DNA from: Lytechinus pictus
Taxonomy: Eukaryota
NCBI RefSeq assembly: GCF_037042905.1
Contig: NC_087251.1
Coordinates: 24,802,001-24,866,000 of the forward strand
DNA: 64,000 nucleotides
Direction of reading: 5' to 3'
In this document: piece by piece, positions 19,210-52,183 of the stretch
How positions within the stretch are numbered: the stretch's first letter is position 1
Layout of the letters: each line of letters begins with the position of its first letter
Notes under the pieces: model-generated
The model's input: the letters and a program-made list of their open reading frames with translations, nothing else
Told to the model about the DNA's origin: nothing
Database searches by the model: none
Position numbers and translations under genes: made by a program

Positions 19210-19215
19210 AATAAA
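19210..19215 (+). terminator. Candidate DRC7 polyadenylation signal
   Basis: AATAAA about 950 nt after the stop codon, followed by T/GT-rich sequence. Confidence 0.45.
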
Positions 19216-20663
19216 TTATGGAAAATATTGCATATCTTATTTGTTTGATGTCAGGTTCTTTTTAATACAAAATGTTGTTGAGAAGATAATTTGATATTCA
19301 AAATGAATTGAAGATTGGGTGAATGACAAAAATTATGATGGGGAATTTTTTCTACTTACAGAATTGAAATTGGACAGAGTAATTTGATTTGTCATTCATA
19401 ACATTCAGGACTTTTGTGATTATCTTTTCATTTCTTGCTCTCTTCACTCATCTCTGTTTTATCATAAAAGTATTATATGATTGGGGGGGGTGGGGCACTC
19501 ATGAGGCTCTTTGTAAAATTACAAATGTTTTGACAAAAAATTAATATTGCAAGGCAAAGTTACTATCATCAAAAACATGTTTTTGCCACTCTTTTAAAGG
19601 AGTACTGTACTGGAAATGTAGACAAAATTCAGGAGACCATTAAGGGAAAACTCATCTCAGTCATGTTAATCATCCATAACTTTACAAATAGCTTTAGAGT
19701 TTATGAAACGGTTTTGCAAAAAATGATCAGCTTAATTTACCAGGAGCAGAGAAGAACCCTTCCTGCCAAAAAAATAAAATAAAATGTCCATCTTCAATTC
19801 TTCCAAATCATTAAAAAAGACACTTCATACAGTTACTGCTATTGCACAAAAGTGAATAAAACTTTTATTTACAAAAATACAGAGAATCTTTTTGGTACAA
19901 ATGAAAGACTGAATATTCACCGTTATCAAAAGTAATTTTGAATAACTTTTGAATTTGTGAACTCTTCCTTCAATATAAATTTCACTTATCAATCTCCAAT
20001 GGTTTGATATAAAAGATAAATAGTTGTTAGCACCCAGTGTACCCTGTATAGGAGGCATGAAAAAAAAATACAAAAATCAACTACTTTGACAGACACAGTG
20101 TTCAAGCTCACTGTTCCTTTTAAAGGTTAACATGAGATATTTGACCATCTAGTTTAAAATAATCCTTAGTATTTATTAATAAATTATGACGTAACGCTGC
20201 TTTAGTCACACTGCACATCATTATCAAAGTTTCACCTCTCGCCATTCGAGACATATCTTGCCCAAGTACTTCATTTCTGAAATGTTTACTTCAATCAGCT
20301 CAGAAGGGCTTGAAGATTCTTGTTCATACAGAAAATTTGTGTGTAACTTAAAATTGTTTTTTCATCAGCAATATTTCTCTGGAATTAAGTTCACGGGGAA
20401 AAAAGAGTTTAAACGTGATTTTTATATTTTAGATCAACAAATTAAAAAATTGGATGGCATGAAATGGGCCAGCTATACAGTTCTGGAAAACACCCTGAAT
20501 GGTCAACTCCATCCTTGATAGATTTTTTTCACTTACTAAATACTATGCATTAATGGTTTAACATGACAAGGCACTAATTCGAACAATTCTCAGTCTATTA
20601 ATTGTGGAGAGACACCTTTTCACATTTTAAAGAGGGAAAGGGTGAGAGAAATAGTACATCAGA

Positions 20664-20927
20664 GGCCCATCTTACAAAGAGTTACGATTGATCCAATCAA
20701 TCGTAACTATGGAAATCCATCAGTGTCATAATCCTTTCTACAGGAAATTTGCACAATGTCCTTTGTAAACAAAGGGAAGCAGTGAATTTTCAAGAAAACA
20801 ATGAATGCATGAAAATACATCATAGCTAGAAATTTTTTTGAACACATGCATAGTAGATGTTGATGTCGCTGGCCGTCCATAGTTGTGATTGATCGGATCA
20901 ATTGCAACTCTTTGTAAGACGGGGCCC
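20664..20927. mobile_element. MITE with roughly 50-bp imperfect TIRs
   Basis: GGCCCATCTTACAAAGAGTTACGATTGATCCAATCAATCGTAACTATGGA ... TCCATAGTTGTGATTGATCGGATCAATTGCAACTCTTTGTAAGACGGGGCCC. Confidence 0.8.
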
Positions 20928-23302
20928 ACAAAGATAGAAGGAAAGGTCATAAACTGGGATGAGAGAAAATGAAAAGAAGAAAGATGGAATGGAAATATTC
21001 CTTTTTCAATATATTTATAGGTAAATAATCACATACCACAAAAAATGGTGAAAAGTAACTCAGCAATGTAGACACCTTTCCTCAGTTCTGCTTTGGAGAG
21101 ATAGCTACATCCAAAATTACTTCCAAATAATAGTTTGTCTCTTCACTTTCATCAACAGTAATTAATTGCTTACTTACAATGTCGCTAGTATCTGTGCTTG
21201 AATTAAAACATCAATGCATTCCAAAAACCAGCATGACATAGCTAATTTAAAAACGTGTTTACATAGGAAATTGGGTACCAGATGAGAAACAAATACATGT
21301 AATTGTAAAAGCTCAAATGAAAGTAAATGAAAAGAAGGCAAGACTATAGCAAGAAGAAAATTAACATTGTGAAAGAAAAAAATGATGACAGGTCATGACA
21401 TAGAAATTACATGTGTAAGAACATCTGTAATACTAATAATATGCATCAATAGGGTACAATTATTGTATCAGATTGTAATTTTACAACAAAACAAAACTAA
21501 TATATTCAATGTATACATCTCTGGGTAAAAGCTTAATCATTCATAACTCTTGCAACAAGAATTCTGCATTTTGTTCATTCTCAAAGTTGACTATTTGATC
21601 AAGGGTTTGACTTCGATACATTCTCATCAAAACAAATCACAAAATCTAGACACTGTATACATTTTCTCTAAAATAAATGATAGCAAATCCAGCTAGTTGT
21701 TTTGTCTGTCAAAGAATAAGACTTCAAATGAAGCTCAGAGATACGAAATACTGAACGAAACTATGAAAGAAAAAAAAATGTATATCATACTGCTGCTGAA
21801 ATAGGACAGCAGCCTAGTTAATAGCTGTTAATGGTAAGTAGACTGCCAAATGACAGGAAAGCTTCAATTTACTGTAATTCTAACAGCCCTCTCCATGAAG
21901 AACTTCCTCACTTACCCCCAAACCAGCGGTCAGGTTTAAGTAGGATTAACTCTTCTGAGCCACCCACAATGATCGTCTGTCACCAAAGTCCTCATTCACA
22001 TTCACTGTGAAAACCCAACCAGTGTTCTGCGATAGCGAAATACAGTAATACAACTTTGTGTCAAAACCATTTCCCATGTAATGTCTTAAAACTTAAATGT
22101 ATGCAGAGTTCTTAGAAGTAAGATTTTTTTTGTCACTGCATACTATGTAATTATCAATGGCGAATGTTTCCACCAATGAGACAACTTCAATGTATATCTT
22201 GAGTTTGATAGAATGTGGAGCACTGTTACCACGGTAGACATCACTGATAATGTGTATGTACCTGGGCATGGTTACATGAAACTTGTGATTAATCTCAAGT
22301 CACAAGATCGACGAATATTATAATCTATTGAATTCCAGCAATTTACTGGCAGTGATCACATTAATGGTACAATTCTTATTCTTCATGATCAGTGTTATCA
22401 ATAACAAATGCAAAAAAAAAATCTCATAGGCAAATCAGATTGCACCCTTTAGTAGCTTGTAACAATTGCCGGTTATAAGCCATTGATTAAATGCTGTATG
22501 CATTAGACACATGGTCGAATTCTTTCAGGCAGCATTGTGCAGTCTAATCTATCCAGTCATTCATCATTCACTTGTAATAACCAGACATTTGTTAAAGCTA
22601 AATATCCAATTTCATTTTTCATCCAATGAAGAGTATAAATTTTCTGTTTTAGTTAGGAATACAGTTACCACCATAACATAAAGCTACTTTACAACTGACT
22701 CCTTTGCCCAATACAATCTTTCTGCTTTACTCCTAGATTGTTACCTTTGAGAGCAAAATAATCATGGATGGCAAGTTGTATGCAACTGGGCTCCAGACTG
22801 CAAGAAACACATTTGGGATATCCACACTCGGTTCAAAAGTGTTCAAACTTTCTATTCATGTCCACATTGAACTTGCTACACCTGGAGTGAGTGTGTGAAC
22901 AAGGTGTAATCGAGTTGGCTTCAATTTGTGTCATTCACTTACAGACTCAATCAATCCTCTAATCTCAGTCACTTTGGCAGAAAAGTTTGGTTTACAACTA
23001 CTGCTCCATCTCTTACTCAAATACTCTACTTCTTGAAAATTTGCCAAGAGTAAAGTGTTGTAAAACAGGCACTTGTGTCACTAATTACAAAGCTTGAATT
23101 AATTTTATACTACCAATAAGAATGACAGAACACAATGACCATTCTCTGGTATGAGTAACAATCATGTAGAGATATACTCAATTGATGATTTCTATCATTG
23201 CATATAATTGACTAAGTATGCCTTTACAGGCATCTACTATAAGAATAAGACTAAAATCTAGATTTTAGAATGTAAATCAAATATAATGAAAATTCAAGGT
23301 AT

Positions 23303-24510
23303 TGTAACATAACTACCTCATGGCCGGTAGAAGGCCGGGCCTTGATTTTTTTTTAAATTATAGTTGATATATATTCTATTGTTAGAGCCGGTGTATAGCA
23401 ACATAGCCTTCAGGCTAAACTTCAGCCTAGTACGAGTTGGCCTATGAATTAGCCTATACACAAGAGACAAGCCTATGCACACAATTACTAGAGCCTGTGC
23501 ATAGCGACATAGTTATATAGCCTATACAGATAGCCTAGCGACATAGTTATATAGCCTATACAGATAGCCTACACGTTATCCTACGAATTAGCCTACACAC
23601 CTGAGGTATAGCTTATATGTGCTCACGGATGGCCAAGGGGTAGCATTTTGTTCCAGGGTCATAGTGGGGACAAGTGCCAGGGTACCACCTGGTCAGAAAG
23701 CTGTGCTTCCATATCACACTACCGGGGTATCAACTGGGTCAGGTCCCGCCATCATAAAACCATCGGACAATGGTGAACTGCTATGCAAGGGGATTTTGGT
23801 TACACGTGTAGTAGTAGAGACTAAAGAAACAACCGTACCCATCTGAGTTTTCAACTCAGGAACCAAGTCATGTAGGATACGCACTTGCGGCCACACAGAG
23901 GTACCCTGGTAGGCCATCTCTCGCCAATTAGGAAGGCATATTTAGAGGAATCGGCAGACAATGCTCTACCATCAGATGTTAATCATGCAGTCCCTGAACA
24001 TCACACAGATCTCTCCAAAAGGAGTAAGGAGGTACCATAGATTTCCACCAAAGGAGCAAGAAGAGATCGACGGTCCGATCCAGGGTATGCTTGCCAATGA
24101 CAGCACAGAGCGTTCTGATAGTCCTTGGTCATTAAATGTTGTACTTGTGAAGAAAAAAGAGGGGTCAGAGAGATTTTGCATTGCCAGATAAGTCATCCCT
24201 CTTATCAATGACTCGCTTGATACATTTAGAGGCGCAAGATGGTTTTCCACTCTGGACCTGGCCTCAGGATACTGGCAGGAGGAGCTGGACGAGAAAGAAC
24301 AAAGGAAGCAACAGAGAAAAAAATGCTCGACCAACATAGCAGAGATGCTAGTGGAAAGTGAAGACAAAAGAAATTGATATCACAGGAGATTCCATGCAAA
24401 TGGGTCCCAATGATATGATGGAAGAGGGTGAAGGAGTAGAAAATCAGAACTGGGTTCTGTGAGACCGCCTAAGAGGCAGAACGCAACCCTGGCAGAGCCC
24501 TGTTATGTAC
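23303..24510 (+). mobile_element. Decayed, internally deleted Ty3/Gypsy fragment (RT remnants)
   Basis: Frameshifted RT pieces SDSPWSLNVVLVKKKEGSERFCI and PLINDSLDTFRGARWFSTLDLASGYWQ (about 24110-24280), homologous to the intact pol in this window. A protease-RT linker-like remnant lies at 23619-23880. Boundaries are approximate. Confidence 0.75.
23502..23569 (+). repeat. 34-bp tandem duplication within a TAGCCTA-rich tract
   Basis: TAGCGACATAGTTATATAGCCTATACAGATAGCC twice. Confidence 0.8.
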
Positions 24511-26758
24511 AGTACGTTTCATATCAAGATATTATAAAGTCCATTGCAAATATCAACAAGGCTTGTTGATAATTGGTTTCTCTACTTTCATTCTACCATC
24601 CAAATGTAATATATGTACCAGCACTTCAAAAGTAAATTCTACTTAAAATCTGAATTCATAATTAATCGCAGAGAATTTCTTTTAAAAATCATACCATAAG
24701 GATAAGACCTCTGTGTGAAAATTTTTATATGAAAAGTAAATAACAGATCATAGGTTATCTAAAGATAAATAAATATTTTTGTAATAATAATATTTCTTGC
24801 TGAAAATGGGATGGTTTTGCTCAAATATAGAAAAGAAATTGCATTTTCCATACCTATGAGAGGGTTTTAAACAGTGAAAAGTGATAGGAAAATGTTCATG
24901 AAAACAAGCTTGAAAAGGTCATAATACAGATTCCTTTCTCCAAAGTCAATGAGGTTTGAGCCTGTAAGACGAAGCTTTACCGACTCATCATACAGTTGAT
25001 TTGTATGTTTGATTGCACATTCAATTCAATTCATATCAGAGAAAGACATTGGACACAGCTCACTACATGATTGCATCTGGTATACATTCTTTGATAAAAT
25101 GCTATTAAATATTCTGCAATTGGTTTTCATATTTCCTTCATAAAGAAATGAAAATTGCATCTACCTCTTTTTGAAGTCAATCAAAGAATTGCAAACCTGC
25201 TACACATACAGAAATTCTAAATATAGGCATAGAATAGAACTCTTCCGGTTGTGTATCAAATTAGAAACTCGAGCCTTCAATCTCATATATATATTTGGTT
25301 CATTGCATAATTGTATGTGTTCTTAATAATTGGTATAAATGATAATGCACTGTATTTTACAGTCAGAAGAATATATACATGATTTTCTGTAGCATGAAAT
25401 CATTAAATTCACTTTCAAATTCTATATTGGCTTGCAATCAAAATAATGTTCTCGTCACAGCATCTATACATGATCCTATGAGTTTTCAAAGTAAAAAGGT
25501 ACTTTAATTGGGTATTAAAATCATGAATGCATGAACACAGACCTAAAAATTGCCATACTTTTTCATTAATTGCACAAGTATTATGATATAATGCATGGCC
25601 TTGGGATGGAATCAGATATTGATGTTGATGACCTGGAGAATATGTACCTCATCATGAGGGCCAGAACTTGGTAAACCTCAGTGACTAATAACATACTCTG
25701 CCAACTTCACTGGTGTGAACATGGCTCCAGTCATTCCATATCTCAGAATATCATGGACATTTTTCATTTATATTTCAGCCAATTCATTGAAGCATGGTTC
25801 ATAGGTTCCTATCAATCAAACTGATATCACAAGAACAGGAAGTAATCGGGTGTGGTTGACATTACGTGATCCATATGACACACATTTTAAGAGTCTCACA
25901 AAAAATGATAGATATAGTGAACACTAAACATTTTGAACAGTCAAGTTAATGCATGTATTTCATCTATTGCACATTCATCTTCACCAACTCCAAATCATCT
26001 TATTTTTACATATACTTGTAAAAGCATTTTGAAGATTGGCCTGAATCTTCAATCCAATATCAAATTGGCTACCTGATCAAGGTTTGCTTGAAGAGTAAAC
26101 AGTGAGTTCTAACCCCTCTCACTTTAACACACACTTTTATGCAATATATGTACCTTTTTTATATCAACAAGAATATACTTGTTTATACCCCTCACAATAT
26201 TTCATGCCTTGGTCGGACCATCCTGTTTCAACCTCAAAGCAACAATCTACATCAAATCCAAGTCTCTAAATATTACCATACATTGACTGGTACAACTGCT
26301 GCTTTACTGACACAAAAGCAGTCCCTACCAAAACCTTGCATGACCCTCTTCAAGTGCTCTCAATTTGGACACTGAAACTTTGATGGCAAGAATCCCTGGA
26401 TATCCTAATCTTTCCAAAATGACCATACAGTAGTCTGATTGCTGGTAAGATCATTTGTTGCCACACTTTGATAGGGCCAGTCCTCCTGGCTATACTGACA
26501 AAACCAACTTACAAATCCTACCAGGTTTAAGTGACCACACTTTACTGTTGGTCCAATCATAGCTTCATGGAAACCAATTCACTCCCTCTTAAACTTGACA
26601 TCCAACTCATTGCTTCCGTATTGGTGAAATTTTGATACGATCAGCCTCGCTGTCCACATCAGCAAAGACCACCGGCAAGTTCCTACCCTGTGGACTCCAC
26701 TCTTTCCGCTTCATTGAAACCATATTGGTACCTTACAATTCTTGAATCTAGCACCTCT

Positions 26759-29700
26759 TCAGATTGCCAGTTTATCAAGAGCAGCTGTCAGAGACAAGAT
26801 GGAGATGAACCCAAGCTTGAGCTCTTCCTTCAGGTTCTTATGAAAGAACTCTGGAGCCCTGGCAAGCTGTTTGCGCATCTGGACCAGCTGTTCTCCATTC
26901 AGATTGTTGAGGGTAGAATGCAGTCTGTGGATGTTGTTGGACTCCAGCCACACTCCGACCTGTTCCTTGCTCCACTTGGAGATGATGCTACTCATAGAGC
27001 CCTTGCTGTAAGACTTGGCAGGAAGAACAGGAGCCTCTGGGCGGGGTGGAGGTGATGTGGTGATCATGGATTTCTGCGGTTCTATTCCTGGATTGAATAT
27101 AATTAATGATATTTGTTAATATGACGCTGGGGAGGTATTCAAATAGTATAATTTAAAGCAATGTTATACCAGTACGTATATTGATCAATTCAATCAAACA
27201 TTATAGAAATACTTCAAAGGTACCCTTGCCAACATGCAAACAGTTAAAGGTAAATGCCAGTTGTGGTAACGATATTAAAATGAGTTTGTACAAAATCCAA
27301 TGAAATGACCACCAAAGTGTCTGTTTGTATAAATAAAACATATGTGCCAAAGAATTCTGGAAGAAATTGTGTAATTGCTGAGAAATCAGCAAATAAGCAC
27401 AAGATTCGGGTCAATTAAGCGTCGGGCCGACATTCAAGGCAATAATAATACACTGTCCCACGTGCGCTTATCTGTGTTGGTGATCTTCAGTGTGAACATT
27501 TTTCAGCGTAGATTTCAAGATTTCACAAAGTTCAGTTTATGTAACTGTACCAGATCTAGATCCTCGATTATATACTGACAATTAAGCCTGGTTTACAGAC
27601 TTTCTCATGAAATCAGTGTACTGCAACTACTGGCATTTCTCTTTAAAGTAAGCCATCCCATATTAGTTGGAGGAAAAATAAGCCAGTAATCATTTCTCAA
27701 TCTAGAGTGGTAAATTAAATAAATTCATGTATATTTCTAAATGTAATCTTGCACTTATTTGCAAATGACATTTAAGGATACTTGCTTATATTCATCCCAT
27801 CTCCAGAGGTAAGAGCCCGGGGGGGGGGGCATTCAGTATTTTTTTACACTTAAATTTCCATTCCAAGGCATAGCATTTTTATCTCATTGAGTTAAAGAAC
27901 GAAGAAAGCTGCTCCAAAGCATAGCATTTTCTTTATATCGAGAAAAAAGAAGAAAGAAATCCGTTCCAAAGCTTCGCAAATTTTTTGTTACGCCGTTCCG
28001 GCCGCATTGATCCGCTACAATGAGCTGCAATTTTGGTGAAAAGCAGCCGTAGAGCGCTGTCCAACCATCGCCTCTGCGCAAGCGCACCCGGCGCCCGTGC
28101 CACCAGGTTAGCTGCATGCACGTATGCCCATTCCATAGGGATGCATACGCACTCACACGCAGGCGACCCGTTCCAAGAACCCCCGTTTTCACACACATTT
28201 GTAGTTCCGAAGCACTTTCCGAGGACCCTCCTTTTTACAATAAGCCCGCTCCAAAGCCCCAGTTTTTGTCTCGCATGTGGCACATACCTACCACTTTTTT
28301 GGTAGAGTACCCCACCCCCCCCGCCCCCGGGGGTAAGAGACTCATACAAGTACATTAACCCCCTCCCCAAATCGGAATGTAAAGTTTTCAATACGTTATT
28401 AGTCATACACACCATGGCATTTATAGTATATTCCAAAATAAAGACCAAAGTTTGGAAAAAGAGAACAAGGTTTTGCATGCTCACCATTTTGCCTGACTGA
28501 TACTTTCTTGGGCACCTTCCCTCTGTCTCCTATCTCCTTGATGAGTGCCGGGAATGATCCTGGGATGACCTCATTGGAATACATCTTGTAATACAGAAGG
28601 GTCCCCACCAAAGCACCAAGCCAGCCTTCTCCCTCGTAACCTTCTTCCAACTGCAGAGGAATGATGGGCTTCTTCAGTTTGTAGGCGTAGGTCGCTTCTG
28701 TATAAGGGAATGTGAGGGGATTACAGAATGAGAAACAGAGAAATACATGTAGCAAGGAAACAATGGTTTTGATGATGTCATGACTCATTAAGTTTTAAGA
28801 GGAAGGAGGCTGGGATCAGGGTTCTTCTGGAATCTAACTCAAATGGTCCTGCTTTATAGATCCCCTAATCCCCGGCATGGAATCTGCTATGCTTAAAGGA
28901 TGTCAACAGAACTAAATGATTACCAGATAGAAAGAAGGTGTGTAATATGTCGCACTTTAAAAATCAGAATGAAAAAACAAAAAAGAAAATGGAAAAAAAA
29001 ACAATGGAACAAACACACATTGAAATCTCTCCGCTTGAATAATTGAATACAGAAACAGTTCTTAGGAAAAACAGGAAAGTTTTAACAGTTTGTATAAAAA
29101 GGATAAGAGATATCTATAGATAAATGAAAAATAACTTTCCCTCATATATAATAGATTTATTATAAAATCAATAGTCTTATATCCAAGAATGCTTGAGTAT
29201 ATTCAATACTTGTTATGATGATAATGATGGTGACGAAATAAAACGGTAATCAACAAACTAAATAAATACATACAAAAACTCTTCATTTAAAGGACATATT
29301 TACTTTTGATGGAAAAAAATGCACATACACTTTTCAAGCTTGGATACATATTTTTATAAATTCATTATATTTCAAACTTTGCAGTGGGATTTTAAGGTTA
29401 GCCAAATCTTAATCCTACAGCTAGAGGGATCATTTACCCTTGAAATAGGATGCCATAATTAAACTGTCATTACCCAAAGAACAAGCTAAATTGGAGAGTA
29501 CAATTCTATCCCTTTAAACATAATCAATAGCATGTGGCACCTCCTTTGCTCTGCATTAATCTACTTTGATATGACATGACTTCCTGTGTGAGTCAAATCT
29601 GAAATTTACCATGGCATGTTGCTAACGCTTCGCTGACAACCATGAAACAACCACCCTCTAGACAATCAAGGCCTGCTCCTCTTACTCATTAGTTAACCCC

Positions 29701-32700
29701 CAAATATCCCAGTCACAACACAAAAGGCAGTTCCACAATGTTAACAATAAATGCTCTCATTCTGACAGGCAAATTTTTTTTTTCAAGAACTATGTTTTTG
29801 TCTTATAAAAGTATCTAAGATTCCTATTGGTGTATGACATAGTCTTATATAACTTCCTTGGAGGCAATCGAAGGGCAACAGGGTTGAATTACAGAAGTGT
29901 AGTTGCCTACTTTCCTGTCCTAATTGTTTCAAAGGTCAATTAGCATGTTGAAGTAGGCTAGGGTTTGAGGTCTACAGCAAACTATTATGCTCCCAGGAAA
30001 TTCAAGAAATTAAGCCAAACTTGCATTTACAAATCAAATCACAAATTAAATTCACATTTATAGGCTGCCTGCGTGGGCAGGCTTTGCTGGGAACAGCATG
30101 TGTGGATGAAAATATGAGAGGTTCCTTGAAATTGAAAAAAATGAGGTCTATTATACTTGACACAGTTATTCTGTAACAGCTATATTGAAAGATAAGTACT
30201 TAAGTAGCAAACATTTTTCTGTAGCAGCAATTATTCTATAATCATATGAAGACTTCATAAAGGGAACATTATTCTGAATAAATAGATATAGAAGATTTAA
30301 AACACAAGAATGAAAATAAACCACTAAGGTCTAATTGACTCAGATTTCCTGTTTAAATGAAAACACATCCACCCCAAAAATGTGAAGCAATAAGAGGTAG
30401 CAGCCCTGACAGGTACAATATACATCCATGTTTGAGTGAATTATGCAGTTACCCCTTAATTTTGCAAAATTTGTCACAGGAAATTAATGTCGGTCCAACA
30501 TACACGTTGCTGAGTAATTGGATAGTCACCTTATCTGGAGAAAAAATCCTTTTATTAGATGCCTTATGTTACTCTTTCATTAAGTTTTTAATTGATTTAT
30601 AATCAAACAAAGGTCTTTCAGTTGAACTAAATGCTAATGGGTTTAAGTAATTTGCAAACACACAAAACTGAAAAAAAAGAAAAAAGAAAGGAACAATGAA
30701 AGAAAGAAAATTGGTGTCATGAAAAAATAGCTCAATAATGAGAAATGGCCACTGGGTAACGAACACATTGACTCCATTCGAAAGATTTAGGAGCAGTGAA
30801 CGAGAACGGCGTGGCAGTCGTCTGATCATTCGAGTCAACGTCATCGTCTGCCCTTGTTCACAACACAGATGCAAATTTCAGATTTCACTTGACTTGTACG
30901 TGTACGTACGTCTACGTGAAACAGCGTGATAACCAGCAGGTCATAACACGCTGCCCGACCCGGAAGATCGCCCGGCGACCCGGTCGGGTGATGCGAAGGT
31001 GCAACTTGTGAACACTTGCTCTTTCACTTGCTTTGATTCATTTTTACGCGAGATAGGATATATATCGATATATATTTTGGAGATCAGAAAGCAATTTCAA
31101 ATATGATAAACATAATGCATCTTACAACTTACATTAATTTTGTGAAAAGTCACAGAAAACTGTTTTTAAAAGGGAAAGGTTGATCTTCATGCTGAGCTTG
31201 AGCGGTAAAAATGGATGTGGCGAGGTTCTCAATTCTGGAAGTGGATAAGGGTGAGGACCTGACGCATGTGGCAGGCCAAAAAATGACGTCATCTCATACC
31301 AGTTGTCTATGTGGACTTGTGTTTCTAAAACTGCTCAATCTAGGTGGAGACTGCAGTTTTATCTTTGCTATAAGGCTAAATGATCCGTCTCATGCAGCAA
31401 GACCACAACGGTGGGTTCACCTACTGCCTTTAATATACCCTTTTTGTTTTGCTTTAGTCACTGTTTTCTATTTTATGACAAATGTCCGGTGGCAGGTTTT
31501 TGTAGTGTAACAACAAAAACAAAATCTTTCTGAGATAAAACAAGAATGCCAAAACAAGCGGTCTTGAAGGCATGACTCGTCTTTCAATCTGAGGGATGTA
31601 AGTTCCACTCCAAGCCATGGCGTGTTTTCCATCAGCGAGAAATGTACCCACATTGTTCTGATCTCAACCGATGTAAGGTCAATGGGTACCTGGTAGGAAT
31701 TTATTCCTTGAAACACAACGCGTGTAACAGCTCCTCTGCTAAAGCCAGGGTAATTATATGCTGAATTACTGTAGACTGCTTAGAGACTTCTTTAATATAA
31801 AGTAAGTGTTGAGCGCTAAATAGCAAGTATAATCATTATTATTAATCAAGATGCATTTATTTAGCAGTAAAAAAATTAAGAAAGCAAGGACATTAGACCA
31901 TCTTGGCATTAGATTAAATGACAATTGGCCCAAGTGATGGTTGAATCAAACGGCACTTTGGCAAACTGATCGTAGACCAAGTTGGTTTAACCATGATAAT
32001 GTCGATCTGAAAATTACCGGTATACCATCTGCTAGCAGCCCAAGTGAATACAAACAAGGCATGACAACATTTTTTTAAATTTTTCTTTTAGTGGCATAAC
32101 AAGTTGTTTCTTATACAGTGTATGTTATGTGACACTTATCAAACACATCAAGTATCAAATATAATTGTCTTAACATACAGTAAGGATAAACTCATGACAA
32201 CATAGATGGTTTTGCAGGCAGGCAACAGATATATATATAAAGCTGTTCGTAAGTTAAGATTGACTTTAAGAAGACTGGCGATCCTTTCTTGTGATATGAT
32301 ATTCACCATTAAATGTTCATTGGTGATTAAATAGCATGTGCGAAAGGTTCACCAGTCCTTCTTAGAGTCGCTCTTAACTTACGAACAAGCTTTATGAAAC
32401 ACCCTCCTGCCTATGCAGTGATTTTTTAAGGCTTCATATCTCAATGACTTTTTAAAAGTTTCATATATCTCAATGACTTTTTAAAGCAGGGGTTCTCAAA
32501 CTTTTTCTTTGAAGGGCCAGATGAGACTCGAATTAAACCTGAAAGGGCCAGGGTACGTGAAGTGGATACTTAGAAAAAAAAATCTGCGCGAAGACACTTG
32601 CAGCCGGGGTCCTAGAAGCTCTCTGGTGCAATCTGGCCCTTATTTTGGAAGAATTTAATCCAACAAATTTATAACAGTTTCATATGGAACACAGGCAAAA

Positions 32701-35700
32701 TTAGAAAAGATTTCAAATACAGCGAGAGTAGTACTTTGTTAAAAGGAATGTAGATTGTACCTATGTCAATTTTAACACATACCTTGAACTGAAGAGACAG
32801 ATAATGTTTTGTAGTAGGCCTATCAATATTTTTTTAGTCAAAGTAGATTGGCCAACACATGGCCTTGTGCTCGATTGCGGCAAAATGAATGCATGCTTGT
32901 CTGTCCATTCTTCATAAGAAAATCCGCAGAACTGAACCAGCAATTAAGTTTACGTTTTAACCAAATTGATCGCGTGTTGGAATGTGTGCGCACGTGTTTT
33001 CAAATGCAACGTGTTATCTGACGTTTGACGTGAAACTACTTTTTTCAATGTAGTGCCGCCTGGTAATTTATAAGAAAGTAGAACAGACAGAAAAAACTCC
33101 ACTAAACTTTGTTTAAAAGTCAAATTAATTTGACTGCCATTATTTTCATTACAGTTTCATGGATACACAATGTAATCATATTGAGCTATGTTTCATATTG
33201 TGACTTAAAAGTGATTAAAACAGCAGAATCTCGCAGGCCGGGATAGAGAAGCTCCGCGGGCCGTAGTTTGAGAACCCCAGTTTTAAAGGCTTCAAATCTC
33301 AATGACTTTTTATAGATTCATATCTCAATGACTTTATTAAGGCTTTTTTATCTCAATGACTTTATTAAGGCTTCATATTTCAATTACTTAATTATTAAGT
33401 CTTCATATCTCAACGATTCTGTATACAAAATGTCACTGAGCTTTGTTGAAAACATCTATACATGTATCTATAAAGGATGTCACCAAATGGGTCAGGTTAC
33501 CCATACCAAAGTGATAAAGCTTACCTGTGCGCCCATTATGACTCTCAAAATACTTCTGAGTCATACACACCAGAACAAGAGCAGACCTCTCCACGGCTTG
33601 AGCCATCGCACCCAAGATGTCTCCAGCTATATCAAACAATGAATATTCATGATTAAAACAACAAAGTACTGTAATTACAGGATCTTGATTAACAGTAAAT
33701 GAACAATACTTTTCTTTCCCTCTTGAAAAAGAATAATAATCATGTTAAAAAGTATATTCCCCCATATTCAGGACTAGCATTTAAAAATGAAATCTAGAAA
33801 ATGTATTCAATATTAGAAGTTCTGTGATCTGTATAATCCTATAATTTTTTTTATTTTTCATTTTACCTCCACTCTCTGATTTTCATCAGATTATGACAAA
33901 AGTTATAGGCATGTTTATCTTCCTAGTTTATTCTGACATGTTGTCATTTTACTGGACTACCAGTCAAAATGGTTACTTCATGTTGTCATTTAAACAGCAT
34001 TTAGGGTAAAGACTTCTTGACATCTTGGATTCATTAACAGACATCTTCTAAATTCATTCTAATCAGTAAATATAGTGTATCTCTAAAACTAAGACAACAC
34101 TCATCAGCTTGTTACTCCACCTCTACTAGGGAGATAATCTTGACTTCACATATTGCTTAATCCATCAGCAGCCAAGTGAAAGAAGTTAATCCTCCAACGC
34201 TAATCAGCAAAAACAAACAGGCTATAACACGAATATCCTACAGATACTGATTGAGGGTGTCCATGTTGTTCAGAATCCCATTATGAATGACCAACCAGAT
34301 CTCATCGTTTAAGGATATGGATTGGTTCTTGGATCATGTTGTGGTTTGGGGAGATATGTTAGACTAATTAGAGTGTGATATGGCAAATGGACCAAAAAAA
34401 GGGGGGGGGTAGACAGGAGTGGGGAGAGAAGGAAGATGATGGAGAGAGAGGAGGAAAGGGAGGGGCAGACATATAGAGAAAGAGAGTGGGAGATGGAGAA
34501 AAGGAGGTGTGTGGTACAAAGAGGGGTCACAATGAGTGGGGGGGGGGGGGCTAGGTCCTATAGATACATCTCAATATTGTAAGGCTCAGAGGAACAGAGC
34601 TTTAAAAGAGATTAAAAATAAGGAGTGACAGGGAAAATGAAAATTATGAGATGGAGAGAGGCGGTGTGAGTGAACAAGAATTCCTTCACACTAAAATTTC
34701 ATCTTTATTTTAAATTCATCTCATTAAAAATAGACCACTGAGACGGTCGATGGTCATTCCTGGCAAAGCCATGTAACTGCATCATCCGAATATGCCTTAT
34801 TCCATATGAATATAAAATATAGCCACGGAGACTGCAATAAAACTCTCCATGCAAAAAAAAAAAAAAAAAAAAAAGATCGGCCACTGGACTGGTCAATGAT
34901 TTTATTATTACGATTTCTGTTTATAGATGAATAGCTATTCTCTAAAATTAAGAAGAAAGGTGTTGATTGCAAAATGTATATTAGGACTAAAATTACAACC
35001 TTTTAACAGTTGAGAAAACCCCAACCAGTATGGTTACTTTCTTCCTAAAACTTACCCATCTTATCAATATCCATCCATACGTTGAATCCAGCTTTTTGTA
35101 GTAGATCCCTGACTTCTATCATTCTCTGCTGACTGTCCCATTGGTAGCTGATCATGATGTGTGGAGACTCACTACTGATGGAAATGGTAGAGGATGACAA
35201 GGATCTCTCAGATTTGTCATTGTGTACACCAAGAGGAACCTTAGTGTCGTAAATCTCCCATAATGCACCAGTACATGCATCCCTGATGGCTGCGTTCTCA
35301 CTGTTCTTCAAGAACATTAGAGCTGTCAAAGAGGAATAAAAGGAAACATACATTTTTATGCTGATAAAAAAAAAAGAATTCAAGTGAATTAAAAGAGTAC
35401 CTATGGTGATACTGCAGCAATACCACACACAGCTTTTGTAACTGTTCTTATATTAAAAAACATTATGTGTTTTTTTTTTAGTAAGTGAATGTTGGTATCA
35501 TGATATAACAAGTTTATACTCCTGCCATGACAACAAGGGAATAGCCAATCTACAACCAAAGTAGTAAATGGGCATCCTTTGGGAAATTTATTTATTGATT
35601 TATTTGAAATATCAAGGAATGCCAGGTCTGAAACCAGAGGTGCATTATGTACACATTTATTTTGAACACCACTTCGTATTGGCACATACAGAATAGAAAT

Positions 35701-36834
35701 GTAGTGACAAGTACATGAGTAAATATCATTCTCACTCTCCAAGGCACATGTTTGTAAGAATGACAAAACATACATACACTTAATTATCTGCTGATCCTGT
35801 CTTATCTTTTCCTTGTTCTCATCCACAAAAGCCAGTTGCCAAATAGCAGCAGCTGCAGTCTCTTTCTCTTCATCTGTGCATTTCTCTGCCAGCATCTTGC
35901 CAATCAATGTCAACCCATCAAGCTCAACAATCAATTTCTTGTTCTCGTCATTGATTGCTAACTGATTCAAGCCCTGTAGGGTTTCACAGGCACTGAAGCC
36001 ATACTTTTTGGTCACATGATTCTTGTACGTCAGAGCCTCTTCGATCATCTTCAGCATGAATTTCATGCATGCATCGTTCGTTTGCAGCTTCTCTACTTCG
36101 GATTTCTTGGCAACGTATGCAAGAATTATGAAAGCCTTTGCCCGAACAATAAGGTATGATGATGTTGATAACTCCTGCAGGTTTTCTATGGCACCATAAC
36201 AACGAGCACAGTTCTTGAACTTTCTCCTACAACAGTTATGCAAGATTCCCAGAATTCCTTTAACGACATAACGTTTTCCATCATCGTTCAAACGATCAAC
36301 ACTCAATTCAGGATCCTTTAGCCCTTCAATTAATAAGTCTAAGCATTTCAATTTACCAAATTCAGTACAGACTTTATCTGAACAATCTGTAAAGTTCCAA
36401 TAACTCCCCAGCATTCTCTTGAGATTGGTGAGTGCTTGTTTGGCTTTGGTAACAGGTTCATCAATATACATCTGATAACTATTAAGGTCATTCCACATCC
36501 TGGGAAATATCTCCACAAATCCTAAAGAGAGTAGATGATCTGCCAGCAAGACTCGATTAGACTTTGGTTTCAGGGTACTGGCCTTTCGAAGGTTATCATA
36601 GATCTTGAAGCAGTCCTCTGTAGCGTAGTCATCGCTGCTCTGCAGATACTCCATATTTTCAGAAGTCTCCTGCATCCACCTCTCAAACTTCTCTTTTGCT
36701 GCAGAAGCAAGATCCTCCTCTAGGTCCGTCTTCCCTCTATCTGGTGCTGTTTTCTCCAACTCTGCTGGCATATCTATCTGATCCACGCCTCTCACCTTCC
36801 GACCCTTCTTCTGACTACTCATCACAGTGCCCAT
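26759..36834 (-). CDS. ARM-repeat / TIR / SAM-like protein (SARM1-related domain set, order ARM-TIR-SAM), 5 coding exons, 655 aa
   Basis: Exons 36834-35778, 35322-35056, 33626-33525, 28697-28485, 27087-26759; all introns GT-AG, phase 1; 1968 nt open. In-frame TGA upstream of the ATG. ARM-like repeats (SYWNFTD, ILGILHNC, GLNQLAINDENK, AAAAIWQLAF, ACTGALWEI). TIR motifs HIMISYQWDSQ...GFNVWMDID...AMAQAVERS...CMTQKYFESHNGRTEATYAYKLKKPIIPL...GWLG. C-terminal SAM-like segment WSKEQVGVWL...LNGEQLVQM. Confidence 0.85.
27816..28331. mobile_element. Non-autonomous DNA transposon with CCCGGG termini and 8-bp TSD
   Basis: Begins CCCGGGGGGG, ends CCCCCGGG; flanked by GGTAAGAG at 27808-27815 and 28332-28339; GC-rich interior; in the last intron of the TIR gene. 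Confidence 0.75.
31560..31845 (+). mobile_element. Degenerate tRNA-derived SINE
   Basis: Similar to the 39044-39332 copy (AGCCATGGC...AATGGGTACC...GCCAGGGTAAT...ATTATT tail). Confidence 0.5.
32238..32405. mobile_element. MITE, same family as 10668-10845
   Basis: TAAAGCTGTTCGTAAGTTAAGA...TCTTAACTTACGAACAAGCTTTATGAAAC inverted arms. Confidence 0.7.
32425..33415 (+). repeat. Minisatellite of about 27 bp (AGGCTTCATATCTCAATGACTTTTTAA-like) interrupted by the hAT element
   Basis: About two units left of 32487 and about five degenerate units right of 33280. Confidence 0.7.
32487..33280. mobile_element. Non-autonomous hAT element
   Basis: TIRs CAGGGGTTCTCAAACT / AGTTTGAGAACCCCAG (one mismatch); 8-bp TSD TTTTAAAG (32479-32486, 33281-33288). 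Confidence 0.85.
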
Positions 36835-39043
36835 GGTGCAGCTGTAGATGGCACTTCCTGGTTGAGTTTTTTTTGTTTGGCACACTCAAGCTTCCAGAGA
36901 CCCTGCACGATTGGGGGAGGGGGAGACAAACGGAGATTAGAAATTAAGGTGGATGTACGGATATCAAATACATGGGATATCTGACTCATTTTGAGGAAAG
37001 GTCACTAGGTTGACATATGCTTGGATCTACTCTGTGACTTGACTGACCAGTCACGCAACAATACAAGTTACTTGCATTTGTTGACACCCTGTGCATCTCA
37101 AGGCTTGGCAAGTTGCCCCAAACAAGGGCAATGTTTTTTTTTTCTTCATATATCAAATATAAATTTCATCTACAGAAAGACAGTGATGCCATAATTTTGT
37201 CATGCAGGTGGAAGAGTTCTTCCTTTGTAAACAAAAAGAAGCATTATTATTTGACCACAAAAGTATGTTATTTCTTTACAGCACTTCATTCCGACATCAG
37301 AAGAATTATGGCGTTGCGAGCTGGCTTTTCATATATTAAGTTGATTTGAATGATAATGTGTAGATATGGCCTATATATATCAATCATTTCAAACACAAAA
37401 TGTAACATGCAGTTCATGCAAACAAGAAAGACTTTGTGATGAAATGTCACTTGAAAAATGAAATATTATTTTGATCTCCATCCAATTCGTATAACCATTG
37501 AGAACCTGCCAAAAGCAATTTCCAAGTTGTGTTTGCATGCTAGTTTATACCGATACCTACTTTCGGCCTAAAATGTTGCTTTATCTTAATTCCCCTTGGT
37601 ATAACACAGTATACAAGAATGCAAACCGGCTTTCCTCTCGTCCTCTTGTGGAGAAAATCAGTGTAACAGTAATAAAGTCAGTGAATTTATGAAAATTCAA
37701 TTTCATAGAGATAAGATCAAAGGGATATCCGTCTCCTATCAAGCCACAATGCAAGGTTAATTTGATTAATCATCTACAGACGTCAAGTTTACCATATTAC
37801 ATGATGCAATGTCACTGTCAAGTTTTGGAGTTTGTGTTTAAAAAATGGTTGATTATTGTATTCTTCCTTGGATACCGTTACAACAATCATTACATCAAAT
37901 CATGGAAAAAAATATACATATGAATATCATCAATGAAAATATGACAATAACCATGCAAATCAATTTTGATTCTGAAAGATAGATTTTCTGCTTAGACTGA
38001 GATATGTTTTTTTATGAACAGAGTAGTATATTCCACATTATTACCTATACAAAGCATTTTAGGAGATAAATGAAAGTCAAAACAGAGGTCAATATTGGCC
38101 CTCGTCTAAAGACTTGGGCCAATATGATTCTGTTGCGGGTGGGCGACATACATGTATTTGATGTTCCCCTCAAGGACAGTCAATATTATATAAATATTCC
38201 AGGTAATATTTTGCAACTTTGTTTCAACACAGGAAATTTTTGTACACTAAATCATATATTTTCATGATCTTATTGCTTCTTAATTCACTTTGTACTAGTC
38301 GTTGTCCGGAATTTAACATTTGTGTGATTGCTTTGTTGGGAATTCACAAAAATACAATCACAGAAAAATGTTAGGCACTTCTATATAAAATTCTACTTTT
38401 TTAAATTTCAACATTTCATTTGATGAAAATGTGCAGAGTATATGTTTATTTTTTTAAAGAACATTAGAGCCTATGTATACTGAAAAAAAATCTTGCAAAC
38501 ATTAGCAAGATAACTTTTAATATTAAAAAACTTGAATATGTGTATCCTACAATAAAAATAATCTTTGACTGATTTGAAGTCTAAGGTAACAGTATACAAC
38601 TACACAAAATGAAAGTCATCATTGGGGATACTGTATGCCATGGAAAAGCTTGTTATTTAAAAACATATGTTTGAAATATATGAAAGTCATTAGAGATGAA
38701 AGTTTCTGTCAACATTCTAATTGGCTGAATGTGCAACCTTCATACCTCAATCTCACAATCCACTTTTCAAATCAGGATGTTCTGATTTATAAGAAATTCA
38801 CATTTGTTTATCACATATCATTGATGGCTGATAAGAATACTGATATATTCAAAACTCAAAGATTTTCTTCTTCAAAATATGTTTACTAAATGGTCTAAAT
38901 CAGGATTTTTTTTCCACATCAATGGCTTGTAACATGAAGGGATACAATTATTTTCAAAAGTAATTTGATTGTTTTGTATAGTTTGCCAATATTTAATTGC
39001 GTTTAATGTTACAATCAATCATATTTTTATGCTTAGGACCCAA

Positions 39044-39332
39044 ATAATAATAATAATAAAGGTATATTTACCCAGGGTAGCCACTTCAGTTCCGAAAACT
39101 GTTCTCCCAGCGGGCCGTGCTATTATTACCCGGCTAAGCTAGGCTACCTATTCGGTGCACACAGCTGTTTTGAGGAATTACTTCCTGCCGGTACCCATTT
39201 ACCTCACCTGGGTTGAGTGCAGCACACTGTGGATGAATTCCTTGCTAAAGGAAATTATGCTATGGCTGGGATTTCAAGCCACGACCCTCTGTTTCAAAGT
39301 CCGGAGACTAATCCACTGGGCCACGACGCTCC
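39044..39332 (-). mobile_element. tRNA-derived SINE
   Basis: Minus strand starts GGAGCGTCGTGGCCCAGTGG (A box), has a degenerate B box GGCTTGAAATCC and a central AAATGGGTACC core, and ends in a (TTA)n tail. Confidence 0.75.
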
Positions 39333-40361
39333 AGATGCAATAAGAATAAAAAGAAAAGAAACATCCAGTATGCAAAAGTTGTCCTGACCTTTGCTCCTGA
39401 AGGACACTCTCCAATATCTAAAATTACAAATATTTATAGGACTCACTATGTATAGTCTAGGATTAGTGTTGGGTTAAGGTGAGAACAAAGGGGAAAACAA
39501 ATGTGAAATTTAGGGAAAATACTGAATTTCATGGAAAATAAGGTTCGGGGGGGGGGTGTAAAAAATACAATAAACACCAAAATGAAATAAAGCATTTAAC
39601 AATTCTAATGAACAAAGAAAAATCCAATAAAAAAACCCTCCAGTCATCAGCAGGAAATCTAGATCAAACCTATTTGCAGTATTAACCATAAGATAAAGTC
39701 AACTTTTAGTAACAAATTTTGCAATTGCTTCGTCATGTTTTTTTTCCCATAATACCAAAGGAAGTAGAATATGCCATTTAAAAAACAGAGTTCTAACTGT
39801 TGGGTACTCTTGGTTAAGGTAATAGGATTTTTTTTAAATCATTTTTTAAATGAGTAAATAGATAGTCAGTTAGAGCATGGGCCTACTAGAGTAGGACCAT
39901 GGTTATAGAGTCAGAGTCAGGGTCAGATTTGGTCTCATATTATAAGCAAATCATCAATGGGATTTATAATGGAAGCAATTGTTGTTTCGAGACAAACCTC
40001 AAAGAGTTGTAAGAACAACAATTCAAACGTCCAAGACTATCATAATATTTTTTCTACATTTTCTCACCTAAACTTCAGTGTTTTACATCACTCCTCGGGA
40101 CTAACACAATTGAAGTTTAGCGATAGCTCTTGCAGTTGACTTATCCGATTGATTGCCTTTCATGATTAATACAATCAATTGTTAATATCGGCCCTACAAT
40201 CAATTGCTATGCATTGTGATCAAGACTAACCAGGGCTCCTGGTCAGAGTAAAATAATCCCAGTTATAAATCAAAACAAAACAATTGACATGAAAATATGA
40301 CTTGTACATGCACTGTACTTTTCAAAAGGAGAGAGAAAGAATCTAAGAATCACATATCTGT

Positions 40362-41043
40362 CAATGATGAAACATCCATGACTTGATAGAAAAATTGATA
40401 TCTCATTTTGTTATGATATATTAGATGACAGATATGCCAGGTATTAGATTCTACCAAATCATTCTATCTCCTGTACCTATCCAGGGTTGAGTTCAGAAAT
40501 AACATTTCTCTGCCAAACATTTCTTTTGCTTCATCAAAAATCAACAATCTGAATTGCATTTTTGTCATATTTTTAGCATAAATTATATTAAATGGAAATG
40601 GACAATGTTATCATTGAGTCCCAGCATAAAAAAAATGTAGTGTTCCCTGACTTCCAATTGATAAGTTTCAGTTCACCTGCCAATTTTTAATGTGCATTTA
40701 ACAATGATGAAACATCCTTGACTTGATAGAAAAATTGATATCTCATTTTGTCATGATATATTAGATGACAGATATGCCAGGTATTAGATTCTACCAAATC
40801 ATTCTATCTCCTGTACCTATCCAGGGTTGAGTTCAGAAATAACATTTCTCTGCTAAACATTTCTTTTGCTTCATCAAAAATCAACAATCTGAATTGCATT
40901 TATGTCATATTTTTAGCATAAATTATATTAAATGGAAATGGACAATGTTATCATTGAGTCCCAGCATTAAAAAAATGTAGTGTTCCCTGACTTCCAATTG
41001 ATAAGTTTCAGTTCACCTGCCAATTTTTAATGTGCATTTAACA
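40362..41043 (+). repeat. 340-bp tandem duplication
   Basis: 40362-40701 and 40702-41041 are nearly identical (about 5 substitutions seen). Confidence 0.9.
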
Positions 41044-43485
41044 GGAGGGGGGGGAGTAGAAAATGTATTGAGTAAAACAAATGCACAAAATCAGTCTGAT
41101 ATACCACTCTAACAAGAGAATATGTGAGACAACTTGCATGTTCCAATTTCTGATCAATTTTCATTGCAAGCAATCATCCCTTTCAACTCTAAAAACAATT
41201 AATGGTTGACATTCATCACCAACAAAAAGCAAAATAAAAGTGAAACAAAAATCATAATTTTCAAGCATAGGATGTTATTGAGCACAACACTTGCCTCCAA
41301 ACAATATCTGATGCAGATGGGCTAGTGTCTCAAATCCACTATATTTTAATCAACATTTCATGTACCTCACTCTGGTTTCAAATTTTCTCTGAACACACCC
41401 TAGATTACTTAAGACAAGGAAGGAAATTCAGTCACAACCACAGTTTGGTGTGGTGTGTAGTGGTGAGGGTTTTTATCTCAAAAGACCAAGATCTACAAGA
41501 GGCCATCTAAGGTTATAGGAAACTCTTCTTCCCTGTCATCATGATTATTCACATCAAGTTTATTCTTGGTTCAACAACATCAACATCATCACAAATTTAT
41601 GCCCGAAACTGTATTTTTTCACCTAGTAGTCTGCAGCTGGTCATGTTCCATCATGTTCTCGCTACAAACTAAAAGAGACCAACTGGTGAATGTATTTAAA
41701 GAATAATTTTGCCCACTTAATTTACATATCTCACAGAACATGAATAGTGCATATTTTTTTAATGTAAAATTTAATGGTCCTCAGATCTGACAATCAAACA
41801 CTTCATTTGAGAGTTCAGCTTACTAAATGATTATAAATTAATCAAAGAACTATTGAGTATTCAACTGTTCAAAAAATTAACTGTAGAGTACCAGAGATAA
41901 CTATAATTGTATTTAAGGGATGCTGAAGGGATGCTGAAGGGATGCTGACATCAGATTTAAAAAGGTTATTGAGCTGGTTATATCTTGTGAACAGGTCATT
42001 ATCTTTTCCAACTCATAGAATGAAATAGATTATGACCTGATCTTCAATTACATTCCTGTCATATGCTTTGATCCAATGACTTATTCTGTCTGCTCAAAGG
42101 ATTAGATGTGCTTTGTTACCATTTCTGCATTATTCATACAACACTTAATTGTGGTGAAAGATGAGGGCAGATCTCGAGCCAAATAAACAATGGATATTTC
42201 AGGTCATTAAATCTCGTCTTTACAATTTGTTACATTCCTATAGATCTATATCTTACTCAGTAGCGCTTGATATTTGACAGGATATTTAAGGGGAAATAAG
42301 CTACTTAATCTCCCCAGTAATGATGCAAGACAGATAATGTTTCAGGGTCATGAGGAAAATTTGATAGTTACTTAAATTAAAGCAACATAAAATCTAGATA
42401 ATTCATCCCTAATCTCAGAAGAAACTTTCCTATCCCAGACTCACCAAAATAATTAGACTTAATTATAATATTTACCTCCCCCCCCCAAAAAAAAAATGAA
42501 AAGGCCTTTAAAAATATTACCCCCCCCCCCCAAAAAAAAAAAAGATTTAGAGAGACAAACATACATGTAACTTGTCTTTTTAATTAATTAATTAATTCTA
42601 ATTAATTCATCTGAAGAAAAATTAAACTATATATATATTTCTAATCCTGGAAATGATTTTTCTTTATCCATTGGTGACGTGTAATAAATTCAAGAAGAAA
42701 TATCATCAAACTGATATCATTATACGGGATACATACATGAATTTCAAAGGCCTAGTGATTATTTTTTTTTAAGTTTTTCAATACAATCGGATCCAAATGC
42801 AATTTTCAAAGCTATCTGTTTAATGAATGTATAGTAAATAATATATATCCAGAATTTATTCTCTAATTGCAGTGTACATTTCATGTCAAGTGCGGGTGGG
42901 TTTAAATTAAAGCACATGACTGGAAATTTCAAGTAAAAACAAAGAGAACTGTGCTTTTTCATATATGGCACCTTCGAACAGTTTCCATTTTAGAAAACTT
43001 TAATGTAACTGAAAAATCAAAGCAAGACTTAAGATGCTACTTCCAAATAGTTGAAGGTTTTTTTTACAACCAAATTAGGCAATGGACCCCTAGCACTGTT
43101 AAAGAAATACAGGAATAAAATCATAAATCACTCATCATGATTGACAAGACCAGGGAAGTAAGTGGGTTAGATATAATAAATCTGGAAATTGGTCATGACT
43201 AAGCTTAGTCAGAACCAATTGCCAATAAAAGGCATTTTCTGGGATCAATGGGGCCACTGTTTCAGGGAGAGTTCTTAACCATTTAAAAGTTCTAAATATT
43301 GGGAAGATGGTTTGTATGTAAAACTGAGTTGCCTAAAATACATGTCAATGAAGTTGGTATGATTTTTGAAGCTGTTTGGCATGAATGATTGTTACTCTGA
43401 AATGAATCTTTTTAACAACCTAAAGAGGGAATTGTATTGTTTTAACTCTAAGGGTCGAATTGAATTTCAATATCAAGTTGACTTA

Positions 43486-52094: not shown

Positions 52095-52163
52095 AATGAT
52101 GTTACACAATTTTCCAAAGAAATATCTGACAATAAAAATATCAATGTACGTGTGCAAGTCCTG

Positions 52164-52181: not shown

Positions 52182-52183
52182 AA

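Follow-up and report, generated by a model that had tools for sequence, protein, structure and literature searches.

An expressed sea urchin ARM-TIR-SAM gene from a multi-copy invertebrate family, and its possible role as a membrane-anchored NAD+ hydrolase

The window analyzed here is a stretch of 64,000 nucleotides (nt) from the sea urchin Lytechinus pictus (assembly GCF_037042905.1, contig NC_087251.1, positions 24,802,001 to 24,866,000 of the forward strand). It carries on its minus strand a gene whose five coding exons join to 1968 nt, encoding 655 amino acids (aa) and a stop codon. We term it the ARM-TIR-SAM gene after the armadillo-repeat (ARM) solenoid, the single TIR domain and the SAM-like C-terminal domain of its predicted product. 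All four introns are of the GT..AG type and in phase 1. Its parts, in window coordinates, with confidence given as the predicted local distance difference test score (pLDDT), are the following:

36835..36904, minus strand: part of the 5' untranslated region (UTR) in the first coding exon; contigs of runs X1, X2 and X15 start a piece at 36904, behind an AG acceptor
35778..36834, minus strand: coding exon 1 (aa 1-352), which encodes the N-terminal tail and the greater part of the ARM solenoid
36799..36834, minus strand: predicted N-myristoylation motif, aa 1-12, Met-Gly-x-x-x-Ser and then a basic stretch, from sequence and family enrichment
35234..36702, minus strand: ARM-repeat solenoid, about aa 45-382, spanning intron 1 (pLDDT above 90; armadillo proteins match at Z about 20, and Vac8 by profile at E 2e-32)
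35056..35322, minus strand: coding exon 2 (aa 353-441), with the final ARM helix, a Ser-rich linker and the TIR from betaA to the BB loop
33525..33626, minus strand: coding exon 3 (aa 442-475), covering the TIR from alphaB into the beginning of alphaC, with S470, N472 and G473
28485..28697, minus strand: coding exon 4, aa 476-546, second half of the TIR and start of the linker
26759..27087, minus strand: coding exon 5, aa 547-655 and stop, Pro-rich disordered linker and SAM-like domain
26774..26992, minus strand: SAM-like domain of divergent sequence, at about aa 579-651, whose second half contains an additional helical segment (SAM_3; pLDDT above 90)
24992..26758, minus strand: 3' UTR, to the end of the RNA-type contigs of X1 and X2

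Transcript data bear out the in-frame joining of these five exons, which the preliminary description had proposed. A contig of 3948 nt from X1 and X2, two runs of a single study that were taken as RNA by guess, crosses all four joints at the exon boundaries, and a contig of run X15 supports two of them. Among raw RNA reads, the joint of intron 1 is spanned by one read in X21 and ten in X23 (a run from a related species), that of intron 2 by four reads, in X23 only, that of intron 3 by one read in X22 and five in X23, and that of intron 4 by two reads with a single start in X22. The exon reads of X22 are confined to one mate direction, which fits a minus-strand transcript in a stranded library of the usual kind. 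The letters ahead of 36904 in the X1 and X2 contigs form an extra upstream 5' UTR exon of about 143 nt, which was not located among the contig pieces listed for 24600-44500, most pieces lying outside that listing. At the opposite end the 3' UTR of about 1.8 kb runs to 24992, with no poly(A) signal in 24951-25200. As an in-frame stop lies 18 codons ahead of the ATG in the same exon, the Met-Gly is the true start of the protein. The upstream UTR exon, the long 3' UTR and the N-terminal MGxxxS motif considered below were all absent from the preliminary description. The ARM-TIR-SAM gene is a real, spliced and expressed sea urchin gene. A pseudogene or a mis-splicing artefact is ruled out by the RNA joints, the intact frame and a 98% identical ortholog.

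For searches and folds we used as a stand-in the closest database protein, the 658-aa model P0001 of Lytechinus variegatus, which is 98% identical to the L. pictus protein and departs from it by 13 substitutions and a single insertion of three residues; within the TIR two positions differ, both outside the pocket. In an AlphaFold2 model based on a 145-row alignment (mean pLDDT 88) the tail is disordered up to about residue 30 and is followed by a helical solenoid that ends at about 385, the TIR (409-540), a linker that is again disordered, and a C-terminal domain of helices. The ARM, TIR and SAM content named in the preliminary description is recovered. The TIR is recognized as TIR_2 (E 4e-17 on P0001) and contains the expected motifs in the forms HIMISYQWD and SHNGRTEATYA. 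The ARM region is weak by Pfam on the L. pictus protein (E 0.002-0.04) and clear by profile and fold, with Vac8 (Z 20.1), APC (19.5), beta-catenin (18.6) and the ARM of SARM1 (18.2, root-mean-square deviation [rmsd] 10.9) among its fold matches. The C-terminal domain matches SAM_3 marginally on exon 5 (23.1 bits against a cut-off of 22.6), and its phmmer matches to solved SAM domains are weak (best E 0.11). No solved SAM occurs among the listed fold matches, where the larger domains of the queries filled the lists and the SAM was not searched alone. This domain is best called a divergent SAM.

By fold the SPARTA TIR is a top match of the TIR domain (Z 18.3, rmsd 2.0) and ranks first in Foldseek; Hydra TRR-2 (Z 17.9), IL-1RAcPb (16.4), SARM1 (16.3), MyD88 (16.2) and TIR-1 (15.1) are further matches in a search of 48,161 representatives. 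A profile of 17 family TIRs compared with solved structures retrieves Cat1 best (E 1e-7), followed by a bacterial SEFIR domain (1e-4), TIR-1 (1e-3), RPS4 and SARM1 (3e-3), with MyD88 at E 0.2. The active-site residues of Cat1 are listed in PMC12162218 as S7, H8, D33, S68 and E74, and these correspond to S411, Y412, D437, S470 and E476 of the sea urchin protein. In the family-profile alignment Glu476 falls on Cat1 E74 with no gap around alphaC, and the AlphaFold2 model places it in the helix after betaC; the Glu of TIR-1 aligns with the family Glu across a 4-residue gap, and the SARM1 alignment ends short of it. The five positions are kept in 233, 233, 230, 227 and 225 of 236 TIR rows, respectively, with 2-10 gaps per column, and Glu occupies the last in 225 of the 226 ungapped rows. 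Coding exon 2 carries S411, Y412, W414 and D437, and the Glu476 codon is split by intron 3, its first base lying in exon 3 and the remainder in exon 4; in all eight paralogs checked this codon is intact and split by the same intron. As judged from these alignments, the whole predicted pocket, beyond the Glu alone, is conserved across the family. The preliminary description had assigned the Glu of SHNGRTEATYA to the catalytic position, and the locally gap-free match to Cat1 agrees with that assignment.

The position four residues before the Glu (Glu-4, Asn472 here) bears on the likely product. It is Trp in none of 227 rows and Tyr in six. According to the preprint of Manik et al. (10.1101/2022.05.07.491051) every cyclase TIR examined has an aromatic residue there, and the SPARTA TIR, with Gly at Glu-4, is reported to be an active hydrolase with linear ADP-ribose (ADPR) as its product (10.1101/2023.07.14.549122). 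For a family devoid of the Glu-4 Trp, linear ADP-ribose is predicted instead of a cyclic signal, and, judged by its sequences, the family more probably consists of hydrolases that do not cyclise, or of proteins without enzyme activity, than of producers of cyclic signals. The preliminary description had proposed a signaling enzyme that consumes NAD+ (nicotinamide adenine dinucleotide); conservation of the pocket favors NAD+ consumption, whereas the signaling part is weakened by the missing aromatic residue linked to cyclisation.

The protein begins with Met-Gly-Thr-Val-Met-Ser followed by a basic run, a pattern which we take to be the N-myristoylation consensus with a second membrane signal. 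Among 144 homologs starting with Met, 65 begin with MG (about 7 expected) and 54 with MGxxxS/T (about 0.9 expected from composition), an enrichment of roughly 60-fold over composition among related sequences that are not independent. The MGxxxS/T motif is found in echinoderm, tunicate, mollusc, brachiopod and coral members; a Cys occurs within positions 3-10 in 22 of the 65 MG-starting homologs, and the remainder of the N-terminal tail is not conserved (median identity 9%). With Gly2 and Ser6 at a true N-terminus, as fixed by the upstream in-frame stop, the protein has the sequence hallmark of N-myristoylated proteins and is a predicted substrate for this modification.

At E 1e-30 or better a HMMER search recovered 376 cluster representatives, and at 1e-10 their number was 2178, many of the weaker matches possibly covering the TIR alone; a gene unique to this locus is ruled out by these hundreds of homologs. 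Among 227 fetched homologs scanned with family profiles, 183 have the ARM-TIR-SAM order, 35 have ARM-TIR and nine have other patterns, a share that is biased upward because the homologs were chosen by similarity to an ARM-TIR-SAM query. The SAM is thus found in most homologs by family profile, yet it mostly remains below Pfam thresholds (at E 0.01, SAM_2 in 14 and SAM_3 in 13 of 64). The family has named representatives in each of the five echinoderm classes and in tunicates, a lancelet, molluscs, flatworms, rotifers, a brachiopod, an annelid, a bryozoan and the coral Pocillopora, with no vertebrate, arthropod or nematode among the named homologs, many homologs being without a name. Some variants (P0057 from Amphiura, P0101, P0147, P0169 and P0181) have altered layouts: one of them includes a Neuralized domain, and in some, units are duplicated or the TIR is present two or three times.

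In the L. pictus genome itself there are at least eight paralogs. Five tandem copies on C6 (11713500-11771000) and two on C15 (9694900-9711600) match all five exons, and a copy on C19 (14203500-14210700) matches the ARM and TIR exons, its SAM not being found; the arrays on C6, C15 and C19 keep the same intron positions. Copies 2-5 on C6 have a diverged TIR (HIMLSYKWE, SQDCRTE) that retains the Glu. A further ARM-TIR gene, on C3, has different introns. A tree built by a quick method from 41 of about 230 sequences, family members only and with long branches for Fasciola and Adineta, places the L. pictus protein with its Lytechinus and Diadema orthologs (Shimodaira-Hasegawa-like approximate likelihood ratio test 100) inside a sea urchin expansion. 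The interest resides in the family, of which the L. pictus gene is one of many copies. Two other TIR groups of this genome may be recorded here. A second multi-copy TIR family, at C15:24.70M, C8:39.31M, C8:27.43M, C15:8.06M, C5:3.59M and C11:34.55M (L029, L030, L038, L036, L037 and L033, respectively), has TIRs of a broadly similar type and is in tandem at five of the six loci read; there, too, Asn stands at Glu-4, and the Glu is retained wherever the sequence was read (S-x-N-C-x-x-E). At C17:1831752-1832444, on the minus strand (L032), a 379-aa frame encodes a TIR_2 and then an ordinary SAM, with a sequence unrelated to the ARM-TIR-SAM family.

On these grounds we tentatively favor the reading that the protein is a cytosolic, membrane-anchored, clustering-activated NAD+ hydrolase of an old invertebrate family. 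The N-terminal myristate would anchor it to membranes. To extrapolate from Cat1, SPARTA and SARM1, an active site would arise only where two TIRs lie side by side, and with the site shared between two domains activity would need oligomerisation; the clustering would come from the membrane anchor together with the SAM on its 40-residue flexible linker, and the products would be linear ADP-ribose and nicotinamide. Across the family the ARM is the least conserved folded domain and the TIR the most conserved (median identity over 144 homologs: TIR 47%, SAM 29%, ARM 23%). The weakest links of the scheme are that the faster-changing ARM solenoid would be a sensor or a brake, and that the output would be a local loss of NAD+ in immune or stress defence.

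A number of observations count against this proposal. As reported in the preprint of Manik et al. (10.1101/2022.05.07.491051), SARM1, L6 and ROQ1 show reduced NADase activity or none once the Glu-4 Trp is lost, so that a protein lacking this Trp could also be an inactive or weak enzyme; moreover, the aromatic rule was derived from bacterial TIRs and may not hold outside them. In the screen of Hurieva et al. (10.64898/2026.04.20.719644), 12 of 61 tested Glu-bearing animal TIRs were reported active, by product or NAD+ depletion, most of the active ones making cyclic ADP-ribose (cADPR) and most not depleting NAD+, and TLR2, IL-1R9 and IL-1R10 keep the Glu yet are inactive. The same source states that most non-TLR animal TIRs retain the alphaC Glu; the Glu highlighted in the preliminary description is indeed kept, but it distinguishes the gene little. 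At Glu-3 the L. pictus copy has Gly, in common with its two Diadema orthologs, where 216 of 227 rows have Cys. The SAM family profile matches just the first 26-43 positions of ordinary SAM domains, and the SAM Atlas score of 0.79 is a lead only. For three recent tandem paralogs the ratio of nonsynonymous to synonymous substitution rates (dN/dS) is 0.34-0.55 in the ARM, 0.07-0.17 in the TIR and 0.04-0.14 in the SAM, a contrast that speaks for the ARM as the variable part but comes from three non-independent pairs (Fisher p 0.07, 0.003 and 0.10). Positive selection on the ARM is not shown, every dN/dS being below 1. Read depth is about 1x or less in the three raw RNA runs, 6% of each having been read, and no evidence in this analysis ties the gene to immunity.

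A somewhat unlikely alternative, though one that has to be weighed with care, is that the TIR is a non-catalytic scaffold and the protein a membrane-anchored adaptor or inhibitor of Toll-like receptor/MyD88 signaling, comparable to TRAM, which is a myristoylated adaptor, or to the novel TIR adaptors of amphioxus, with the Glu kept for structure or binding. The missing Glu-4 Trp would suit such a role, the fold is equally near to MyD88 (Z 16.2), IL-1RAcPb (16.4) and SARM1 (16.3), and the genome has many long-frame TIR_2 matches of Toll-like receptor size. In amphioxus bbtTIRC and bbtTIRA are described as inhibitory adaptors in a review (PMC6043800), whose account of them leaves their domain order unstated. 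The 49 inactive proteins among the 61 Glu-bearing animal TIRs point the same way, but that screen used isolated domains without activation, a limit stated by its authors (10.64898/2026.04.20.719644). What tells against a scaffold is that the five pocket positions are near-invariant from coral to tunicate homologs. Furthermore, the top sequence match is the enzyme Cat1, whereas MyD88 reaches just E 0.2.

It is distinctly improbable, in our estimate, that the TIR is instead a second-messenger synthase, making cADPR, a calcium messenger in sea urchin eggs, or another ADPR derivative and signaling without draining NAD+. The cADPR made by most of the 12 active animal TIRs, with echinoderm, mollusc, rotifer and lancelet proteins among them (10.64898/2026.04.20.719644), speaks for it, and ARM is among the domain abbreviations in a figure of Hurieva et al. 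However, the Glu-4 position that separates cyclase from non-cyclase TIRs is here almost devoid of aromatic residues (Trp 0/227, Tyr 6/227), and no downstream effector gene adjoins the ARM-TIR-SAM gene, whose neighbors are DRC7 and a retrotransposon. That the gene is a domain-permuted SARM1, as suggested by the preliminary description in its term domain-permuted SARM1-like protein, or a true SARM1 paralog in which the TIR moved ahead of the SAM and the ARM keeps nicotinamide mononucleotide/NAD+ sensing, is very improbable: three domain types are in common, three full-length human SARM1 chains come first when the whole model is submitted to Foldseek (E 1e-7 to 4e-7), and Atlas scores are 0.93-0.94 for SARM1 clusters and 0.94-0.95 for green-algal ARM+SAM+TIR clusters, but the Foldseek rows have a TM-score of about 0.2 and an rmsd of 26 and owe their rank to the occurrence of ARM and TIR in one chain, SARM1 ties with or ranks below unrelated proteins when each domain is taken separately, it is absent from the best 60 profile matches, and the signature BB and EE motifs and the WxxxE Trp are missing from a protein with one divergent SAM, not two. 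A deep shared origin with SARM1 may nevertheless be possible, since algal ARM+SAM+TIR proteins exist.

As for the genomic surroundings, exons of DRC7 (dynein regulatory complex subunit 7) lie on the plus strand at about 7900-25020. The RNA-type contig of that side ends at 25020 and that of the ARM-TIR-SAM gene at 24992, so that the convergent transcripts may overlap by about 29 nt. Upstream of the ARM-TIR-SAM gene, at 44520-52755 on the minus strand, is a Ty3/gypsy long terminal repeat (LTR) retrotransposon, whose two LTRs of 572 bp each are 100% identical and whose gag (51105-52250) and 1408-aa pol (46936-51159) frames are open. The identical LTRs and open frames speak for a very recent insertion, and the element may sit in the first intron of the ARM-TIR-SAM gene, because the search up to 44500 did not reveal the first UTR exon. 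Interspersed repeats, intronic and upstream (27236-27669, 31600-32500 and 38100-39900), are covered to very high depth by reads that come from other parts of the transcriptome.

SARM1 and the oyster TIR-STING are the main animal cases of regulated NAD+ destruction by TIR domains. A broader proposal, which we consider doubtful, is that the present family constitutes from corals to tunicates a second ARM/SAM/TIR system for NAD+ destruction, independent of SARM1, lipid-anchored and non-cyclising, arranged in tandem arrays with diversifying ARM sensors, and operating as an intracellular receptor-executioner. The lack of vertebrate, arthropod and nematode members among the named homologs would explain why such a system was missed. 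If it were true, ARM/SAM control of a TIR enzyme either arose more than once or predates SARM1, and sea urchins, molluscs and corals would possess a candidate effector of cell-intrinsic defence; with an inactive TIR, the gene would instead join the uncharacterized ARM-TIR adaptors.

Comparison with known systems begins with the invertebrate ARM-TIR proteins, which are probably included in the ecTIR-DC families of Gerdol et al. 2017. The gene shares the two features of this class, an ARM-type fold and a TIR, with no receptor ectodomain, the class being defined by these two domains in table 5 of PMC9334734. In the oyster (PMC4346834) and Aplysia (PMC9334734) accounts ARM repeats likewise precede a single cytosolic TIR_2, and such genes are described as expanded in molluscs and echinoderms and uncharacterized in function, which is in line with what the preliminary description had said of them; unlike the present analysis, the available portions of these accounts make no mention of a C-terminal SAM, an acylation motif or an active-site analysis. 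A TIR-SAM combination was reported in amphioxus in 2008, and a 2026 TIR atlas is reported to contain several uncharacterized eukaryotic TIR clades, including invertebrate ones. We found no published study of the ARM-TIR-SAM architecture, which Gerdol et al. 2017, Hibino et al. 2006, Peng et al. 2015, Zhang et al. 2011 or bioRxiv supplements may describe.

SARM1, dSarm and Caenorhabditis elegans TIR-1 resemble the family in having ARM, SAM and TIR in one chain and a Glu at the catalytic position, and the SARM1 TIR is similar in fold (Z 16.3, rmsd 2.0 over 124 residues). SARM1 differs in its ARM-SAM-SAM-TIR order as against ARM-TIR-SAM with one divergent SAM, in a TIR identity of about 21%, and in being typically present once per genome, whereas the family is multi-copy. 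The signature motifs given for SARM1 (group 24, PMC7075850) are E(R/K)LEAG in the BB loop and H(D/E)YQ in the EE loop; here the BB loop reads D-I-D-K-M-A-G, Asn472 stands in place of the WxxxE Trp, and the EE-loop H(D/E)YQ is missing. No SARM1 gene of L. pictus was met with among the 16 TIR_2 and 20 SAM_2 regions read from scans of its genome, a result that does not speak for its absence.

Both ARM-TIR genes and Glu-bearing animal TIRs are already in print. The non-TLR TIRs of Hurieva et al. 2026 share the alphaC Glu with the family, and that report includes an echinoderm TIR in the active set and ARM among the drawn architectures; they differ in being mostly cADPR makers, whereas the ARM-TIR-SAM family is predicted to be non-cyclising. 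Cat1 (TIR-CARF) and SPARTA (TIR-APAZ), respectively the best sequence and the best Foldseek match, have the pocket residues in common with the family, and SPARTA in addition lacks an aromatic residue at Glu-4 and yields linear ADPR. These two are bacterial and have other sensor domains, in contrast to an animal gene with introns, and the likeness is one of distant TIR homology that shows no gene transfer.

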